Assembly (NCBI GenBank): GCA_030390025.1
Contig: CM059430.1
Coordinates: 125,426,001 to 125,490,000 of the forward strand
DNA: 64,000 bases
From: Squalus acanthias
Taxonomy: Eukaryota
Direction of reading: 5' to 3'
Part shown: positions 7,563-61,876 of the stretch, in pieces
Numbering within the stretch: the first letter of the stretch is position 1
Layout: the number at the start of each line of letters is the position of its first letter
Translations under genes and position numbers: made by a program
Notes under the pieces: model-generated
Told to the model about the DNA's origin: nothing
Database searches by the model: none
Seen by the model: only the letters and a program-made list of their open reading frames with translations

Positions 7563-9233
7563 TGAAATAAAAACAGAAAATGCTGGAGATACTTAGCAGG
7601 TCAGGCAGCATCTGTGACGAGAGAAACAGAGTTAACGTTTCAGGTCGATGACCTTTCGTCAGAACTGGAAAAAAATCAGGAAATGGAACAGATTTTTAAG
7701 CAAGTGCAGGGGCTGGAAAAGGTGGGAGGGGATGAAAGAACAAAAGGGAAGGTCTGTGATAGGATAGAAGGCAGGAGAGGTTAAGAGACATTAAGAGATA
7801 TTCAAGGCAAAAGGAGATGGTAATGGGACAGGTTAAGAAACAAAGGATGGCTCTCGATGAAGTGTGAATTGCGCTGGCAGAATGAAAGACAGCTGCCATG
7901 TGGGAGAGAAGAAAAAAAGACAGACAAACAGTGTGGATGAAAAATATATATATATATATATATATAGGGGCCGAGGTTATGATCTGAAATTGGTGAACTC
8001 TATGTTGAGTCCAGAAGGCTGTAAAGTGCCTAATTGAAAGATGAGGTGCTGTTCCTCGAGCTTCCGCTGAGCTTCAGTGGAACAATGCAGGAGGCCGAGG
8101 ACGGTGAGGTCTGAGTGGGAATGGTGCGAAGAATTAAAAAGTGACAGGCGACCGGAAGCTCGGGGTCCCCCTTACGGACTGAACGGATGTGTGCCGCAAA
8201 GCGGTTACCCAATCTGCGTTTGGTCTCCCCAATGTAGAGGAGACCACATCGTGAGCAGCGAATACAGTGTATTAAATTGCAAGAAGTACAAGTAAATCGC
8301 TGCTTCACCTGGAAGGGGTGTTTGGGGCCCTGGACAGTGGGAAGGGAGGAGGTAAAAGGGCATGTGTTGCATCTCCTGCGCTTGCACAGGAAGGTGCAGG
8401 GCAAAGGGGAAGGGGTGTTGGGGGTGATAGAGGAGTGGACCAGGGTGTCGCGGAGGGAGCGGTCCCTGCGGAATGCTGAAAGGGGAGATGAGGGGAAGAT
8501 GTGTTTGGTGGTGGGATCACGCTGGAGGTGGCGGAAATGGCGGAGGATGATCCGTTGAATGTGGAGGCTGGTGGGGTGAAAGGTGAGGACAAGGGGAACT
8601 CTATCGTGGTTCTGGGAGGGAGGGGCAGGGGTGAGGGCAGAAGTGCGGGAGATAGAACAGACACGGTCAAGGGCCGTGTCAACCACAGTAGAGAGGAATC
8701 CTCGGTTGAGGAAAAAGGAAGACATGTCGGAAGCACTGGTATGGAAGGTGGCATCGTCAGAGCAGATGCGGCGGAGACGGAGAAACTGGGAGAATGGAAT
8801 AGAGTCCTTACAGGAAGCGGGGTGGGAGGAAGTGTAGTCCAGGTAGCTGTGGGAGTCAGTGGGCTTGTAGTGAATGTTTGTCAATAACCTATCCCCAGAG
8901 ATGGAGATGGACCATGTGAAGGTGAGGGAAGAGTGGAAATTGGAAGCAAAGTGAATGAAATTATCTAGTTCAGGGTGAGAGCAGGAAACGGCACCGATAC
9001 AGTCATCAATGTACCGGAAAAAGAGGTGAGGGAGGGGACCTGAGTAGGACTGGAACAAAGAGTGTTCCACATATCCCACGAAAAGGCAGGCATAGCTAGG
9101 ACCCATGAGGGTTCCCATAGCAACACCTTTGATTTGGAGGAAGTGAGTGGACTCAAAGGAGAAGTTGTTCAATATGAGAACAAGTTCAGCCAGGCGGAGG
9201 AGGGTGGTGGTGGATGGGAACTGGTCGGGCCTC
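7563..9233 (-). mobile_element. 5'-truncated Penelope-like retroelement (RT + GIY-YIG endonuclease) with 3' pLTR
   Basis: ORF 8030..9172: GVAMGT.MGPSYACLF, FRYIDD RT motifs; C..C and CIRCSRCGLLYIGETKRRL..R..H GIY-YIG; internal deletion and frameshift near the end; pLTR at about 7563-7670. Confidence 0.93.
7630..7666 (-). ncRNA. Minimal type I hammerhead ribozyme motif in Penelope pLTR
   Basis: AGUU-CUGACGA-A-AGGUC(AUC)GACCU-GAAA-CG-UU-AACU: conserved core, 5-bp stem II, palindromic ACGU stem III, stem I AGUU/AACU. Confidence 0.75.
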
Positions 9234-10104
9234 TGGGAGACTTCCTGTTCTTTGGAGGGGAAGGGGGTTATATCCTCCTATTTTTTTCAAAGTAATTTCT
9301 CCCAGCTCTTTTTCTGGTCTTTCCAAGCCATTCACTAGCTGCAGTCCAGTTAAGAGTGCCCATGGATGACCTTTGTCCCGGCCTCAGCCTGGAACATTCA
9401 TGACTCAGCCACTGGGAGATCTACAAGATTAGCCTAATGATGACTCTACTTCTTACTTTTTCCTCTTTTCTATCCTTCTTTCAAACTTAGCTCATGGCTT
9501 ACCGAGAGTGACAGAATGGAGATTGTCAACTCATCGTGTGGGAACTCATACCTGCAAAACCACGTCCAACCCCTCCAAAATGCCACACGTTGGCACAGCA
9601 ACATGTTGCGCCATCGCACAATTCCATTAAGAAACTTTCACCACCTGTCTGGGCTGGAGTCAAACCAAGGTGCCAGCGTTGCAAGGATATCAGTAGTTAT
9701 CGAATGTTTCTGTGAGGCACTTCCTGCAACTATTAATATACTTCCCAGAACTCCCTACAATTATTGGCATAGTTTTGGTCACCCCCCCCCACCCCCCCCA
9801 CAACTACCCACAAAAACACTGCGATCACAGCAGAAAATGATTTTCAATTAGTATGCAGTGCGAGAAATAATATGCTAATAACTCAACATATATAGAAACA
9901 TTTAGAAGGCATCTGATGATGTGAGGGACCAGGATCTCCTCACAGACCCTCTATGGTTCAGGGATCCCAGTCTGAAAACCTATATTGTATCTAACTCTGT
10001 GGCATCTCGTTCTGTGTAACTTCTGCTGTTAATGATGTCCAAAGAGAATCCTTCTTTGGAACATTACAACTAGTTCTGATTTGCAGCAGGACATGCAGAC
10101 GCAC

Positions 10105-15727: not shown

Positions 15728-16290
15728 CATGTATCACTCGTGCACAACATTGTGATAAGTACGATATACGGCCCTTCTGAACTTCCCCTCCCCAGAAAGG
15801 GTGAAAAAATTAGTCACCCCCCGGGTGTTATTCAGAAGCATACCAACAGTTTGGATCCCTAATCAGGCAGCAGTAGGGACAGTACAACTAAACTAAGTCC
15901 CCTTCGGCTAGCGGGGTGTGAAATCGTTAGGGCAGTACCTCATCCAAATAACCATTCTTTATACGTGAGCTTAAGCAGTGGATATCAGTCGGTTATCTGA
16001 CTGCATCCTCTCCTTATCCAATGTTCACACAGGCAATTACAAGCAAGAGTCAGTGAATAGAGATCAGAAGCAGGAAACAGAGACCAGGGTCATTGTAGCG
16101 TACTGTAGAGCACCTACTGCCACCCTGGTGAGATCACCTAACTCAGGACAAACCAGTACTGAGCTGGAACTTCCTTGCTCTGTAGAACTCAGTTCCACAA
16201 TGGGCTGTGCTGAATAATCGAGACAGCCTGCAAAAAACCTTTTATTGATGTCGGTGACTATTTACCAACAGAAAGTCAGAAGTCACTAAC

Positions 16291-17615
16291 CTGTTTGGTC
16301 TGGTTAATGAAGCCCCTACTCCAGAATCTCTCCGCTCCCTCATCTCCATTTCTTCAGCTTCATTAAGCGAATTGCCAGTACTGTCAAAATCACTTGCAGT
16401 AGTACCCACGTCAGACATCGAGCGGTCTTCAAAATTCAAACCCTGCAAAGGAAAAACCGTCTCTCCAGTAGAGTCAGACTCTGTGTCATTAAATTCTGTG
16501 CGTAACATTTTTGACCAGAGGTCCACTGACTGCTGTAACCCATTGACATGCTTCAAGACATCATCTAGTTGTTTAAATAAGTCCTCAGATCCAACTATGT
16601 TGTTGTACGGGTGAGTCTCGGGCACATTGTCATAAATGCTCTGCCTGCTCTCCGTGGAGCTGCATGAACCCCTTCGTCCCTGAAACCCAAACCCTGGAAA
16701 ATTGTTGATGCTACTGCATGTGGACATCCCAAAGGACAGATTTCCTGATCTCCAGTTTACCAAATGGTCATCAGCACCTGGACACAGGCTTTCTATGGAG
16801 AGGGCTTTGGGGAAGGTCCCTACTTTGTGGTTCTTGGGGACCCGGACAACATAACCTTCATGAGAATGCGGTTCATCTTTTCTGTTATGGTTGGAGGCCA
16901 TGAGCCCCATTTCATAGTCTTCCAAGTACAGTCCACAATGCATTGTGCTGTGGCTACTTCTAGAGTTGACCGTAGAATGTTCTCTGCATCCACATTCAGC
17001 AAGTGAAGCAACTGATTGAGATACATTCGTCATCAAGCCCTTTGGGCTCTCGTTTCCAGTTTTCAAAGGACTGGAGCTGTGTAATGGTTCGTGTTGCCGT
17101 TGTAACACAGTCCTGCCACTTCCTGGCTCTTTGCTTTTTGAAGCCATTTTGTCTTTGCCCCGGAGAGTTTTAAATCGAAGGGACTCAATTCGTCTTAGAA
17201 AGCTCTTGGTCCTCTGTTTTTTGGGGATCTCCATGAAGTCTGGAGTGGTTTGGGTTCCAGTGGAAACAAAGCTGTCATTTGAGCAGCCATCAGTCTTTCT
17301 TGCTGCTTGGGTATGATCCACCATGACTCTCCTTGGACTTTCTTGCACTGCCGGATGACTGCCCGAAGAGTGACCTAACACCTCCTCTTGGATGCTCCCA
17401 GCACTTCTGCTGCTGCGCACAGAACTGGCCTCGGGATCACTGAGGTCAGTGAGCACGCTCTCACGGCTGGCCGACTCCTTCATTGTTGAGCTTAGGACCT
17501 CAGCTCGGTTCGACAGGAAGTCGACAGTCGTCAGCCGAGACCATCTTTTGCTCTCTCGCTGAAATGCCCAGCGATCACTGATAGCGCACAGGTCGTCTTC
17601 TTCAGAATCGTCACC
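16291..17615 (-). CDS. STARD8: STARD8-like large Ser-rich exon (focal-adhesion targeting region)
   Basis: 1325-nt open exon, GDDSEEDDLCAISDRWAFQRESKRWS ... GTFPKALSIESL ... SIYDNVP ... LDDVLKHVNGLQ ... ERRDSGVGASLTRP; contains ORF 16242..17483; AG/GT boundaries in phase. Confidence 0.96.
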
Positions 17616-21327: not shown

Positions 21328-23900
21328 GGGTAGATTCTGGTCTGTACTGCCTGGGCATTAATTATCACGTGGAAGGGGCGCAGAGAGAAAAGTTGGGCTA
21401 GGAGGATCGCATGTGGGAAGGGAGCCTGCCTGATACTCATTCCATTAAATGAATGGGAAAAAAATCTGGTGGGCTAGGTTACTGGTTTTATCGCTGCGCG
21501 CAGCCCAGACAATGATCAATTCGGCGTACCGCCCCATTCCGACTGTGATTGTGCTGACTGCCATTTCAACTCCCGACTTCAATTAGGTGGCCGAGATCAT
21601 GGCTGGAAGCAGGTGGGTGCTGCATGAATGAATGCAAATCAGGGTCCGATGATACCTTTATATGATGCAAGTGATTTTAACTGAAGCCCCACCCGGCGGC
21701 CAACCCACGGAGTATAAGCTCGCAGGATTGGCTCCAGGCACTGACTCATTGGCTCAGCACCAATACTCAGCATAGCAAACTGATCAAAAAGAAATTTATT
21801 GCAGCCCAGGGGGCCACCAGCCACACTAGCGCCATGGTGATTTCCCTCCCCTTCCCCAGGACTGGCCACACGGTTGCAATGGACATACAGCCAGAAACCC
21901 ACCAAACCCACCTAAACGAGCCTGACCCCAGAAAATAAAATTAGTCAGGGGCTTCTGATTACTGACATGCGGTTTAGCTGGCATGGCCCTGGTGCACGGT
22001 TTGCTGGCACGCCCCCGGTGCACGGTTTGCTGGCACGCCCCCGGTGCACGGTTTGCTGGCACGCCCCCGGTGCACGGTTTGCTGGCACGCCCCCGGCGCA
22101 CGGTTTGCTGGCACGCCCCCGGCGCACGGTTTGTTGGCACGCCCCCGGCGCACGGTTTGCTGGCACGCCCCCGGCGCACGGTTTGTTGGCACGCCCCCGG
22201 CGCACGGTTTAGCGGCACGCCCCCGGCGCACGGTTTAGCGGCACGCCCCCGGCGCACGGTTTAGCGGCACGCCCCCGGCGCACGGTTTAGCGGCACGCCC
22301 CCGGCGCACGGTTTAGCGGCACGCCCCCGGCGCACGGTTTAGCGGCACGCCCCCGGCGCACGGTTTGCTGGCACACGCCCCCGGCACACGGTTTGCTGGC
22401 ACACGGTTTAGCTGGTATGCCCCCAGCACACAATTACTGACAGGAATTTTCCAGCATTAGGAACACCAGTCACCAGTTATGGAACTGCAGCTGCTTAAAG
22501 GGAATACATTATAATTTTGGATATACAACAATTTCAAAACTATTTGAGTTTGCAGGAGGGCCCAGAGTCCTCAGGTTCACCAACGAACATATAGAAGTCC
22601 TTCTGCATGAAGTCAGGCAAAGAACAGAAGCACTGTTTGGCATGCAGCAACGATGGCCCACAAGGAGAGCAATTTAGCAGCAGCACAGGAAATAGCCAGG
22701 GCAGTCAAACACCCCACGCACAGCAATTCAGTGCAAGAAAAAGAATTAATGACCTGACCAGGACAAGCAAGGTAAGAGGAGTTATCCGCATCTTCCAAAA
22801 GTACATTTGGAATAAGTATATCTGATAATTAGTGATCTCCCCTCACACTGTGCTTACCATCAATGCCCAGCAGGCAGCACCATGCCCTCGGCTTTCACCT
22901 GGAAGCGTTCCTTTATTCACAGTCTTGTGTTAAATCAGCCCACTAAAAGTGTCACTTGGAATCTAATTGCTTGGTGCATGTACCTCAGCACACCTATTAC
23001 AAGAATTAATGTGACAGCGGGGCGTTACGGCATCTCGTGGTAATCAAAGGTCATTCTCAATTTTGGCATTCTTTTTGAAGTAGAAGGCAAGCCATAACAC
23101 CAGAACGAGAACAAACCTTCACCCACCCACCTCCGATGAGGAGGAAGCTCTGCTATTACTGGGAAAGGAGGCCATACACAGTGGCAGAGATGGGGAAGTA
23201 AGAGAGCAGCTGCAAATGACAAGTTCCTGATTACATTTTGCTCTGTTCCTACTGTAACCCTCGTTACCGGTCAGCAAATTATATCGTGCACCCTCCCACC
23301 CCATCATTACGTCTGAAAGTCACATGTGAAGTCTGCTCCTCAACCACCCATTCTAACCTCTCTTCCTCTTTTCTGCCTCTAGATGCGTCAGAATAGGAAG
23401 AAGAAAATCCACCCCCCCCCGCACTGTATCTGGCCTAGCCAACACTTCACCGCGTGCACTGTCACTCACTCTATACCTCCCAAACACCAGTTCAAAAGGC
23501 ATCTACACCAGAGGTGAGTGCATTAGGTGATCCACAGAGCACAAGTGAGCAAGAGCAGCTGGGGGTTTGACCTTAAGGGTGAAGAAGTTGATGATCAGAG
23601 ATCCAGGAGATGTCACCCTACAGCTGAAGGGCCCAAGGACCAGCTCTCACAGGTGCTGTTTTTAAAGAAGGATGCACTAAGTGTATGTGCAGGCACTGAG
23701 GACCGTGCCAGACAGTGCATTGCAGATGGAGGAGTCCACCACACTCATGTGTTAAGGTGACAGAGACTTTGCAACACCATGGTACATATGAGAGCTCCAG
23801 AGCTAACTGCAGCAGAGATCTCCATAACAGTGCCCCAAGGGCAATCTGTGCATCTGCTATAGGTGCTCAATTACTGATGTCAATCCAGACATCCACTTAC
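21328..23900 (+). mobile_element. Decayed PIF/Harbinger element with Myb/SANT-like gene relic (about 22560-22772)
   Basis: GGGTAGATT TIR-like start; LRFTNEHIEVLLHEVRQRTEALFG...RINDLTRTSK|gtaag, disrupted by stops and frameshifts; right boundary uncertain. Confidence 0.65.
21985..22425. repeat. 26-bp CpG-rich minisatellite, about 16 copies
   Basis: Unit CCCCCGGYGCACGGTTTGCTGGCACG with TTTAGCGGC and TTTGTTGGC variants, head to tail. Confidence 0.97.
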
Positions 23901-24329: not shown

Positions 24330-24478
24330 ATTTTTTTTCTCACACCAGCTTTTGTCCCTCCAGGTTCTGACGAAGGATCGCAGGCCTGAAACGTTAACGT
24401 AACCTTTTTCTTTTCTCTTCTCCACAGATTCTGCCTGCCCTGCTGAATGTTTCCAACATTTTTTGTCTTTATTTTGTC
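24330..24478 (+). mobile_element. Solo Penelope pLTR fragment with hammerhead-like core
   Basis: GTT-CTGACGA-AGG..CCT-GAAA-CGTT-AAC followed by TCTCCACAGA..CTGCCTG.CCTGCTGA, homologous to the 7.6-kb pLTR. Confidence 0.7.
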
Positions 24479-29670: not shown

Positions 29671-30133
29671 CGTTACACAGGGCGCTGTACAGTGCGTTAC
29701 ACAGGGCGCTGAACGGTGCGTTACACAGGGCGCTGTACGGTGCGTTACACAGGGCGCTGTACGGTGCGTTACACAGGGCGCTGAACGGTGCGTTACACAG
29801 GGCGCTGAACGGTGCGTTACACAGGGCGCTGTACGGTGCGTTACACAGGGCGCTGTACGGTGCGGTACACAGGGCGCTGTACGGTGCGGTACACAGGGCG
29901 CTGAACGGTGCGGTACACAGGGCGCTGAACGGTGCGTTACACAGGGCGCTGAACGGTGCGTTACACAGGGCGCTGAATGGTGCGTTACACAGGGCGCGGA
30001 ACGGTGCGTTACACACGGTGCGGTGCACAGGGCGCGGTGCACAGGGCACGGTGCACAGGGCGCGGAACGGTGCGGTGCACAGGGCGCGGAACGGTGCGGT
30101 GCACAGGGCGCGGAACGGTGCGGTGCACAGGGC
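29671..30133. repeat. 24-bp CpG-rich minisatellite, about 19 copies
   Basis: Unit GTTACACAGGGCGCTGWACGGTGC, shifting to GGTGCACAGGGCGCGGAACGGTGC at the right end. Confidence 0.97.
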
Positions 30134-30433
30134 GAATTTTTGGTTTGCATTAGAGGTTAGTCAGTGTTTGAAGCTAAAGGAGGTTTCTCATTTGCAAGTA
30201 CTATCCATAACTCTAGGCCTACTGTCAAGAATCATTGGTTTAGCTAATCTTGAAGCTCTTCAGTTTGCCTTGAAATAAAATCAGAAGAGGTACCTTCCTG
30301 ACTTCAGCCTCACTGCCTGTATTTCATGGTCTCTGGGTTTCCTGTTTACTACGGGATTCAGCAGCAAACAGGTTTCAAACATCTTTCAACTGGACAAGCA
30401 GACTGCCGTGAGGGCAAGCCTTGTAGTAGAAAT

Positions 30434-44702: not shown

Positions 44703-45525
44703 CAACTTGGCTCAATTAGTAGCATTCTACCTTTTGAGTCAGGAGGTTGTGGGTTCAAGTCCCACTCCAAGATATGAGCAAATAACTTATTTTGATACAA
44801 AAGCAAGATACTGTGATGCTGGAAATCTGAAATAAAAACAGAAAATGCTGGAAATACTGATGAAAGGTCGTCAACCTGAAACGTTAACTCTGGTTCTCTC
44901 TCCACAGACGCTGCCAGACCTGCTGAATTTATACTGATACTCCAGTGCAGTACTGAGGGAGTACCTCAATGTCAGAAGTGCTGTCCTTCAGATAACACAT
45001 TAATCCAAGTCCTGTAGGTTTGTTCTGGTACATATTAAAGAGTTCATCACACTATTTGAACAAGAGTGGGAAGTTCTCCTCATGTCCTGGCCAACATTCC
45101 TCCTTCAACCAATATCAAAAACAGATCAACTGATCACTGTGGGGCCATCCAAAACTAGGGGTCGTAAATATAAGATAGTCATTAATAAATCCAGTACAAA
45201 ATTCAGGAGAAGCTTCTTTACCCAGAGTGTGTGAAACTTGCTACCACATGGAGTAATTGAGGTGAGTAGCATAGATGCATTCAAGGGGAAGCTAGATAAG
45301 TACATGAGGGAGAAAGGAATAGAAGGATGTGCTGATAGGGTCAGATGAAGTAGGATGGGAGGGTGCTCATATGGAGCTTAAACACCGGCATAGACCAGTT
45401 GGGCCGAAAATTCATCTCATTGCTATTTGTGGGGTTTTGCTGTGTGCTAAATGGCTGATGTGATTGCCGATATAATATATCACTGCATTTTAAAGCATCA
45501 ATTGTATGCCGAGTGCTTTAAGACT
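44703..45525 (+). mobile_element. Deu-domain SINE carrying nested Penelope pLTR (about 44790-44930) and CR1 3' fragment (about 45145-45410)
   Basis: tRNA head TGGCTCAATTAGTAGC..GGTTCAAGTCC; SINE body resumes after each insert; pLTR contains CTGATGA-A-AGGT..ACCT-GAAA-CGTT-AAC. Confidence 0.78.
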
Positions 45526-59640: not shown

Positions 59641-61559
59641 ACAAGGAGGGAGGGAAGGGTTGGAGGCTGGAGGTGAGAAGGATGACCCATCAAACAACAA
59701 GCTTTTTCTTGTGTGACATCCTATCATGATTGATTATAAGTAAAAGTTTTTGAAAGAAGCATCCTTGCTACCATGACACTAACCCCAATAATTAATACAT
59801 CAGTATTGCAATGGAGTTTTGGCAGCAGACTACTTCAGAGGAACTGAACATATCCAAAAGTTCCCCCACCATAGCAGTACCATTGCTTAACGAAAGAGTC
59901 TGAGAAGTACAGACCCGTGTCCTTCCACTTTCTTTCAGGGTAGCTGTGCGTGTTTTCCAATCTTTATATTTACTACGTATGTTTCCAAGTCAAGTGAGAG
60001 AAAAAAAAACCCATGTGAAGGGTTGATGTTTGACTTGAGTAAGGCTTTGATTGAAATCATTGGTCATAACCAGAGTTTTGGTCTGGTCTGGGCAGAGTTA
60101 TATCACATTACTGAAAGCAAAACACTGAACGTAGCTAAAAGAAATGAAACCTGAACATTATAGAAGTGAACTGACCAGACACTAAACCACTCACACTGCT
60201 TTTTACTTAAAGGGGAAGTACAACTAGTGGTGAGGGAGAGAGAAAATAAAGAACCGGCTCAGTTTTTTTTCCGTTTTTCCCTTAAAGGTGCTGGCTCCTG
60301 CTGGGATACAGTTCCACTGGGGTTTTATAGTCCTATGATACTTCACCCAAATGGTCATTCTTATCGGTGAACATCTGGAGGCTGTTCGACCTGGGTAGAA
60401 TCACAGCGAGCCCTATAATGTTCTAACCTGACTCCTACACACATGTACTTTTCAACAGAAGTGCTGGATACTGATCAGGAGCAGGAATCACAACAAATTT
60501 GTTTTCTCTCCTCACCCAAGGGCACTGCTACCACCCGACTGAAATCAGCTAATTCAGCACAAATTAGGGTCTCTAATCTGGACCTTCCTAGCTGAACCAT
60601 CAGGGAAACTAGAATTCTAAGATTTAAATTAAGTCTTTCCCACGTGTTTACATAAAAGAATGGATGCTGAAATATAGGTTTGTCACTCATCGCACATCAC
60701 AATTGGAAACACGCCTTCACACAGGATGTAACACAGTCCACAGAGAGTTTTCAAACATTCAATAGACTGTTTTAACCCTGCAAGTGCTTCAAGCTGTGTG
60801 TATGAGTGTGTCTCCGCATCTCTCACAGACAACTCAGTAACTGCCGTCAGTCACAGATGATATCATCAGCACGAGCCATTAAAAATATTCCCCACAAAGA
60901 GAAAAAAAATCCCCAAATTTTCCCATGCCCAATCAAAAACAGAATAGAAAGTCATAAACAGAGAAAAGAACAGACAAAAACGAGCTTCCTGTGTAACATT
61001 TTAATGTGGGGTTGGAGGGTCCAGTGGGTGACCTTACAATGCTGACCTTTCACTTGCAGGATCTTGGTTTCAATGCTTATTACAACATCATTTCAGGCAA
61101 CTAAAAATTCACTTATTTGTTTAGTCATATCTGGTGAGTGAACACTAGCAGAACCTGAAAAACACAGCAGCCAAAGCCTAGTTACCTTGTTATAACTGAA
61201 GGGTTTAAGGTGAGGGTGGAGGGAGTAATGGAGAGAGTGTTATAATGGAGAGCCTTATATTGAGGGTGGTGTGTAACCAAAGGAGTGTTGTGTTATAATG
61301 GCTGTGGCGCGTAACCAAAGGAGTGTTATATTGAGGGTGGTGTGTAACAAAGAGCTTCATAACCATAAATGAGCTACAACTACGTGTATTATACCGAGTG
61401 TCTTACAATGAGGACAAAGTGTAACAGAGTAAGTTAAAGGCCTTATAATGGAGGGTGGATTTAACAGAGTGTTATAACCAACAGCCATATAATGTGGGTG
61501 GAGTATGTAATGGAGATAGGTTATAACTGACAAGGTTATAACTGACAACCTTACAATGA

Positions 61560-61780
61560 GAAGTCGCACAACACCAGGTTATAGTCCAACAGTTTTATTT
61601 GAAATTACGAGCTTTCGGAGCGCTGCTCCTTCGTCAGGTACAGTCAGGTACAGGTACACTGACGAAGGAGCAGAGCTCCGAAAGCTCGTAATTTCAAATA
61701 AAACTGTCGGACTATAACCTGGTGTTGTGCAACTTCTCATTTTTGTCCACCCCAGTCCAACACCGGCATCTCCGCATCAT
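61560..61780. mobile_element. Short hairpin (inverted pLTR) Penelope-derived element, copy 2, with two head-to-head hammerhead cores
   Basis: 83-bp arms 61555-61637 / 61659-61741; direct repeat AACCTTACAATGA at 61547-61559 and 61781-61793; same tail as the 30.5-kb copy. Confidence 0.87.
61606..61640 (-). ncRNA. Minimal hammerhead ribozyme motif
   Basis: UAC-CUGACGA-A-GGAGC(AGC)GCUCC-GAAA-GC-UC-GUA: core, 5-bp stem II, palindromic AGCU stem III, stem I UAC/GUA. Confidence 0.7.
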
Positions 61781-61876
61781 AACCTTACAATGAAGATGGA
61801 TGTACCAAGAGTGCTATAACTGAGAGCGCTACAATAATGGGGAGGTATATTAGAGCATTCTATAACAGACAGCATT

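Follow-up and report, generated by a model that had tools for sequence, protein, structure and literature searches.

A 221-nt insert in the window (the whole 64,000-nucleotide stretch of Squalus acanthias DNA that was analysed) is, by its sequence, a stump of an autonomous Penelope-like element (PLE) encoding a reverse transcriptase (RT) and a GIY-YIG endonuclease: a promoterless piece of the 5′ untranslated region (UTR) of that element, present twice and head-to-head. We consider it probable (roughly 0.7) that the stump was made in one insertion, in which two target-primed reverse transcriptions each reached the predicted and probably capped 5′ end of the RNA, ran off it and were joined head-to-head. 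The original prediction had read the same hairpin as a retrozyme-like unit, free of open reading frames (ORFs) and mobilized as such by Penelope RT. The features of the locus, in coordinates of the window, are as follows.

61547 to 61559, plus strand: left target-site duplication (TSD), 13 bp, the last 5 nt of which are also the arm end.
61555 to 61644, minus strand: inverted arm, equal to parent +1 to +90, from the predicted start (61644) to priming site 1 at the T-run, by comparison with the parental copy L135.
61606 to 61640, minus strand: minimal type I hammerhead, with stem I UAC/GUA, a 5-bp stem II with AGC loop, and an AGCU dimer palindrome.
Between 61609 and 61608, minus strand: predicted hammerhead cut, from sequence and covariation, the activity being predicted too.
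61645, minus strand: non-genomic G adjoining +1 (C in the parent), a putative cap copy or first slip-back base.
61646 to 61658, plus strand: junction filler, stuttered re-copies of the left-arm end, unique in the genome.
61659 to 61741, plus strand: direct arm, equal to parent +8 to +90, with a core at 61659-61690 that lacks stem I closure.
61742 to 61780, plus strand: one-sided PLE tail, 39 nt, reaching priming site 2 at bases 1 and 2 of the parental start codon.
61781 to 61793, plus strand: right TSD, an exact copy of the left.
61188 to 61546 and onward to about 61873, no strand assigned: degenerate TTATAA-rich repeat tract, the insertion target according to repeat analysis of the locus.

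The layout agrees with what had been described from the letters alone. The inverted arms (61555-61637 and 61659-61741) are 83 nt each, 96% complementary and 21 nt apart; the insert measures 221 nt between the two copies of the exact 13-bp TSD, AACCTTACAATGA, and the arm end overlaps the last 5 nt of the left copy. Each arm holds the core CTGACGA-A-GGAGC-loop-GCTCC-GAAA-GC-TC-GTA, and stem I is closed (TAC/GTA) in the minus core only, while the TACA ahead of the plus core is shifted by one base. The spacer, taken earlier to be stuttered throughout, is stuttered in the filler, but 61638-61644 are templated and correspond to parent +7 to +1; a CTGTAC duplication is a subfamily variant among long copies. 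In parent coordinates, with +1 as the A of an initiator-like motif and the start predicted from motifs, the insert reads +1 to +90 inverted, then filler, then +8 to +129. The left arm reaches exactly +1 and is followed by the G at 61645, after which the filler repeats the arm end, a pattern that a cDNA end slipping back onto the GAC of the core would yield. The two arms differ at one recurrent polymorphic site (loop AGC versus AGA). The insert contains no TATA box and no ORF, the locus holds no tandem array, and its hammerhead pair is inverted. The records found to carry the element were contigs, with no RNA among them; those of related organisms cover the element but reveal neither its starts nor its ends, and as none of them spans the locus, an empty site was not seen.

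A 40-mer from the arm has 3,454 exact matches in the 3.7-Gb genome, compared with 0 for the reversed control; these counts and a hairpin folding z of -18 rule out a chance origin. The asymmetry, the one-sided tail, the 12-13-bp TSD and the RT-encoding parent likewise rule out a MITE or DNA transposon. The Penelope origin proposed for the insert was borne out by longer copies that extend upstream into a GIY-YIG-like ORF end, and by L135, a partial tandem (pLTR-ORF-pLTR) whose ORF of 868 aa, counted from the ATG and frameshifted near its end, matches RVT_1 (Pfam, E = 7e-8) and contains a CX4CxxC linker. The GIY-YIG match itself, in the copy L061, lies just under the Pfam cut-off (E = 3e-4). A CX2-5CxxC linker between RT and endonuclease marks the Neptune clade in the available text of PMC8557442, and the linker sequence, one that Nematis shares too, points to a Neptune-type PLE as the parent. 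The parent has, in order, TATATATA, which begins about 33 nt ahead of an initiator-like CTCACT, then 7 nt, the hammerhead core, a T-run at +89, the tail, and the ATG at +128; arms and tail together represent the 127 nt upstream of the ATG. A pair of TATA and initiator-like motifs is reported for rotifer Pen2a in the accessible part of PMC3846280.

Across the genome we counted at least 3,146 core-to-core junctions with 6-36 nt between the cores, a lower bound from exact matches in which several subfamilies are pooled. The best-scoring 40 look-alikes in a genome search with the insert all match over its full length. Spread as a unit was not borne out: the spacer of the locus occurs once in 3.7 Gb with up to one mismatch allowed, and spacers are distinct in 24 of 29 look-alikes (the locus itself left out) and in 28 of 34 pattern-picked hairpins. 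The few short spacers that recur, 2-4 times each, are the simplest short-homology joins. We also parsed 79 insertions from the first 100 of the 3,454 matches, 42 with two arms and 37 with a single arm, a few of the latter having a tiny second arm that the search overlooked. Their arms vary in length without a break, from about 30 nt to over 800 nt, reaching the parental ORF (6 duplicate loci dropped); sampled loci were the first listed on contig C1 or the best look-alikes, and hence non-random. The mini hairpin is the short end of a length continuum, not a self-spreading unit. Long GC-rich inverted-repeat elements of one kind interrupt both L158 arms and a single L164 arm, all at one position (GTTGG).

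The tail is confined to one arm, ending at +125 to +139, in all 42 two-arm insertions, and the shorter arm ends at +82 to +97 in 41 of them. The arms therefore begin at two different sites, about 40 nt apart, and because 29 of the 37 single-arm copies also end at site 1, this site primes by itself. Target-primed reverse transcription with a TSD, another part of the original prediction, is upheld: of 106 two-arm insertions tried, 8 could not be parsed, and 93 of the 98 counted have a TSD, with a modal length of 12 bp (11-14 bp in 80 of 93) and 69% A+T. These matching TSDs in relatives rule out a 13-mer that was already duplicated before insertion. The proposed microhomology priming survives as a bias: the mean overlap is 1.6 nt at either site compared with 0.7-0.8 nt after shuffling, but it is zero at site 1 in 32 of 93 insertions, and the 5-nt target overlap of the locus belongs to the upper tail (4 of 93). 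Short homology aids priming yet is dispensable. At L002, L050, L053 and L170, two subfamilies inserted independently at, or within a few bases of, one site of a dispersed repeat of the host, and the 13-bp TSDs of L002 and L170 are identical; these shared sites suggest sequence-specific target hot spots.

At the other end, stops of copying are densest around the predicted start. Arm 5′ ends fall at -5 to +10 in 49 of 121 arms, at a density of 1.8-9 per nt compared with 0.03-0.5 elsewhere, and the boundary is diffuse, with 17 ends at -5 to -1 and 9 at +1 in this tally. A second tally, not selected by the preceding base, has its mode at +1 (23 of 109 short arms, 18 with G before). Genome-wide, the base before +1 is the parental C in 18,366 cases, G in 2,986 and A or T in 1,593, so that 2,986 of the 4,579 cases other than C are G; at the next position inward, G was found in 17 of 100 (among the matches listed first, counted by eye). 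Inspection covered 70 of the first 100 matches with G before +1, namely the first 30 and 40 picked mostly off the hairpin list. With 11 longer copies and 3 TSD-covered cases removed beforehand, G precedes +1 in 9 of 12 single-arm cases (P = 0.001 versus 28%); 4 of the 9 can be read as slip-back or short homology, and the remainder is 5 G versus 3 A. G is also frequent ahead of other ends in hairpin junctions (+4, 10 of 13; -1, 5 of 6), where the partner arm can be its source. Untemplated G is the accepted mark of a copied cap in L1 and SVA elements, according to the available text of PMC4859970. The extra G here is likely to be a copied mRNA cap, with slip-back copying accounting for part of it instead.

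The ribozyme cut site behaves differently from the start. None of the 121 arm ends falls at +37, a position that only partner arms could reveal, the 40-mer anchor starting at +29. Genome-wide, 604 pattern matches have a purine before +37, compared with 284 for the adjacent base. On inspection, 8 of 12 proved to be true ends, of which 3 have 4-nt homology as their explanation; the excess is small and due in part to point variants and short homology. Cleaved RNA is rejected as the main template on these numbers, 604 matches (some of them point variants) at +37 against at least 2,986 at +1, and because the copies span the cut site, their templates were uncleaved.

Both arms of an insertion come from one event, given that their length classes agree (25 short-short, 14 long-long and 3 mixed; Fisher P = 1e-8), as do their subfamilies: at three downstream sites, 0 of 31 arm pairs of mini hairpins are discordant, pairs lacking two parsed cores having been dropped from this tally (18 of 42, 3 of 34 and 3 of 29). 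At recurrent polymorphic sites, by contrast, the arms differ in 22 of 172 comparisons (12.8%), against 1.0% in other columns and about 44% under random pairing. Alleles at +12 and in the loop are linked (P = 4e-6), so they were inherited and are not fresh errors, and double differences represent different haplotypes. As a transcript has a single 5′ end, short pairs with discordant arms, L100 and L010 among them, suggest that two RNA molecules were used in at least some insertions; the agreement of most pairs fits a single template molecule equally, and later gene conversion or error hot spots in loop II may be alternative sources of discordance. One-base insertions in loop II (L139, L142, L145, L152, L156, L159, L162, L164 and L166) are discordant in 10 of 31 arm pairs, compared with 11.6 under random pairing, and reflect two templates or else a hot spot of RT errors. 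Such a hot spot, if real, could explain the variability of PLE hammerheads noted in the available text of PMC4209133. The upstream and downstream pLTRs of the L135 tandem also differ in loop II (AGA versus AGC), and tandems too may be built from different templates.

These data bear on three other explanations. One is a single priming followed by fold-back, in which the cDNA (or an antisense template, as has been suggested for rotifer Penelopes) would bend back on itself close to the hammerhead and be copied into an inverted arm. Short palindromes (GTAC) and near-symmetric junctions do exist, length class and usually alleles are common to both arms, and the accessible part of PMC3846280 interprets inverted junctions as self-priming on an antisense template. 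Fold-back nevertheless predicts identical arms, and the observed discordance stands far above its 1% background, 5 of 39 pairs having 2-5 differences that are linked; site 1 also terminates most single-arm copies, numerous junctions are asymmetric or contain filler, and an antisense template predicts neither the stops nor the extra G at the sense start. We regard this explanation as unlikely.

A stop caused by the polymerase stalling or being trimmed at a folded or dimerized hammerhead, rather than by a capped end, would keep the two primings. It accords with the clustering of ends at the 5′ edge of stem I, their spread across about 15 nt, and the other sources of part of the G excess. A block would, however, be expected on entry at the 3′ side (+37 to +40), yet the whole core is copied; moreover, the mode sits on the initiator A at TATA distance, and the extra G differs from the genomic base, making such a stop quite improbable. 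The retrozyme-like hairpin of the original prediction, transcribed, processed by its ribozyme and moved whole by Penelope RT, would account for the thousands of hairpins of similar size and for the few recurrent spacers. A unique spacer, the mostly distinct spacers of look-alikes and the continuum of arm lengths argue that this is not such a unit; tandem units and a promoter are lacking, and in the energy model the hairpin is about 67-70 kcal/mol stabler than either arm alone. For this locus the retrozyme-like reading is already largely refuted, and we consider it highly improbable.

The motifs in the arms are minimal hammerheads with covarying stems, as predicted. Stem I occurs as TAC/GTA 170 times and as CAC/GTG 137 times, with 18 off-diagonal cases (counts that include overlapping loci more than once); among variants of two families, 7 of 10 stem pairs show two-sided change and 96.5% are paired, and the conserved core is invariant in 20 hand-picked variants of the two. 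This covariation reflects few evolutionary events, between subfamilies or families. The second family has members elsewhere in the window, at 7629-7667 (minus strand), 44852-44890 (plus) and 24367-24400 (plus), with stem I AGTT/AACT and an ACGT palindrome; its stems I and II and its palindrome are swapped relative to the first, the 15.2-16.2 pair changing from G-C to C-G. Upstream of its copy at 7629 is a 415-aa frame (ORF 8030-9277, minus strand) with YIDD RT-like and GIY-YIG-like residues by eye and no match in a Pfam search, and the family is probably another PLE family. An Rfam search of the insert at E ≤ 10 returned no hammerhead family; its top matches, microRNA hairpin models below their gathering scores, reflect hairpin shape only. 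The expectation that the hairpin outcompetes the ribozyme fold was confirmed (-78.6 kcal/mol, z -18 versus shuffles), and even single arms adopt no hammerhead fold in the energy model. It had also been proposed that a ribozyme is presented whichever strand is transcribed: the core letters are indeed on both strands, but the antisense arm is transcribed first either way and stem I is missing from the plus core. The two cores are on opposite strands and unable to pair in cis. With the antisense arm first on either strand, and no TATA box or ORF, the ribozyme at the locus is likely to be silent.

In the mechanism that we favour, the endonuclease would cut the target in a staggered fashion and the 3′ ends of both strands would prime, one near +90 at the T-run and the other near +130 at the start codon; the tail would be the 40 nt that separates them. 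Priming would fall on the 5′-most copy of these sites, and each cDNA would meet the RNA end after 90-130 nt, where an extra C would often be added opposite the cap. The cDNA ends would then be joined through short homology and slip-back copying, which would give each insertion its private spacer. The template would be uncleaved and, in some events, two different RNA molecules may have served.

The layout, tail, TSD, hammerheads and opposite-strand pairs are already published. Inverted-pLTR insertions of EN+ PLEs, as far as the available text of PMC8557442 and PMC3846280 describes them, share the inverted 5′-truncated copy, the one-sided 30-40-bp tail and the TSD, and with the parent the TATA/initiator-like motifs in the pLTR and the Neptune CX2-5CxxC linker. 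Those seen here differ in their minimal size, in that both copies stop at the predicted start, and in having neither promoter nor ORF. The same two papers ascribe the inversion to self-priming and the tail to endonuclease resolution, whereas our data point to two primings. In metazoan PLEs the minimal hammerheads show weak cleavage, as dimers, and dual motifs 100-700 bp apart on opposite strands were already noted, in the accessible portion of PMC4209133; ours share the unpaired base before stem II, G10.1-C11.1, the palindromic 15.2-16.2 and predicted dimer activity, but have a 3-bp stem I and cores just 21 nt apart. That paper, in the portion available, proposes cleavage and circles as templates, whereas the copies here span the cut site.

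Among non-coding relatives, the non-LTR retrozymes share the type I hammerhead and the derivation from PLE pLTRs, but are head-to-tail tandem units in the available text (bioRxiv 10.64898/2026.07.22.740005), whereas we see an inverted, one-off insertion product. A close biochemical parallel is Anolis Poseidon PAc, which in vitro uses two adjacent internal initiation sites, either target strand and uncleaved RNA, and for which a protein dimer is predicted (PMC11167929, as far as its available text goes). Common to both systems are two adjacent sites that define the tail, extension of both strands and an uncleaved template. The PAc sites, in that same text, lie 111-118 nt inside the ORF and show no strand preference, whereas those of the present family are located in the 5′ UTR, with one of each used per two-arm insertion. 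In L1 twin priming both target strands also prime, and the resulting inversions consist of segments of a single RNA that do not overlap; in our insertions, one 90-nt stretch is copied into both arms from fixed sites. L1 shares the extra G at full-length 5′ ends (PMC4859970, available text).

A broader model is possible, although we hold it only tentatively. PLEs may integrate as a complex of two enzymes and two RNAs, in which each subunit would prime its own strand at a fixed site on an uncleaved capped transcript and the AGCU palindrome would possibly link the RNAs. Mini-hairpins would then be double strong-stop cDNAs, and the ribozyme a pairing or positioning module, not a cutter.

Regarding the neighbourhood, positions 16242-17615 of the window (minus strand) hold an open frame of 457 aa, apparently a large host exon, for which Pfam and Atlas searches returned no name. 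We take it to resemble the serine-rich exon of the DLC1/STARD13/STARD8 RhoGAPs, and the stump may lie within an upstream intron of the gene with this exon-like frame. GC-rich minisatellites occupy 21970-22402 (26-nt units) and 29671-30134 (24-nt units).

Our literature search, limited to openly accessible text, found no paper on start-site stops, cap-derived G or discordant arms in PLEs, nor one that reads the two arms as two primings with run-off at the cap. PLEs are the closest mobile relatives of telomerase. The single locus is a dead insertion, ordinary as a locus and useful as a record of mechanism, and thousands of such stumps log, at base resolution, where priming and stopping took place and which template was used. 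Together they speak for two primings on a sense template that was uncleaved and probably capped, rather than for circular templates or antisense self-priming. This bears on how PLEs make inverted ends and on what their hammerheads do, and offers a testable clue to how these elements insert.
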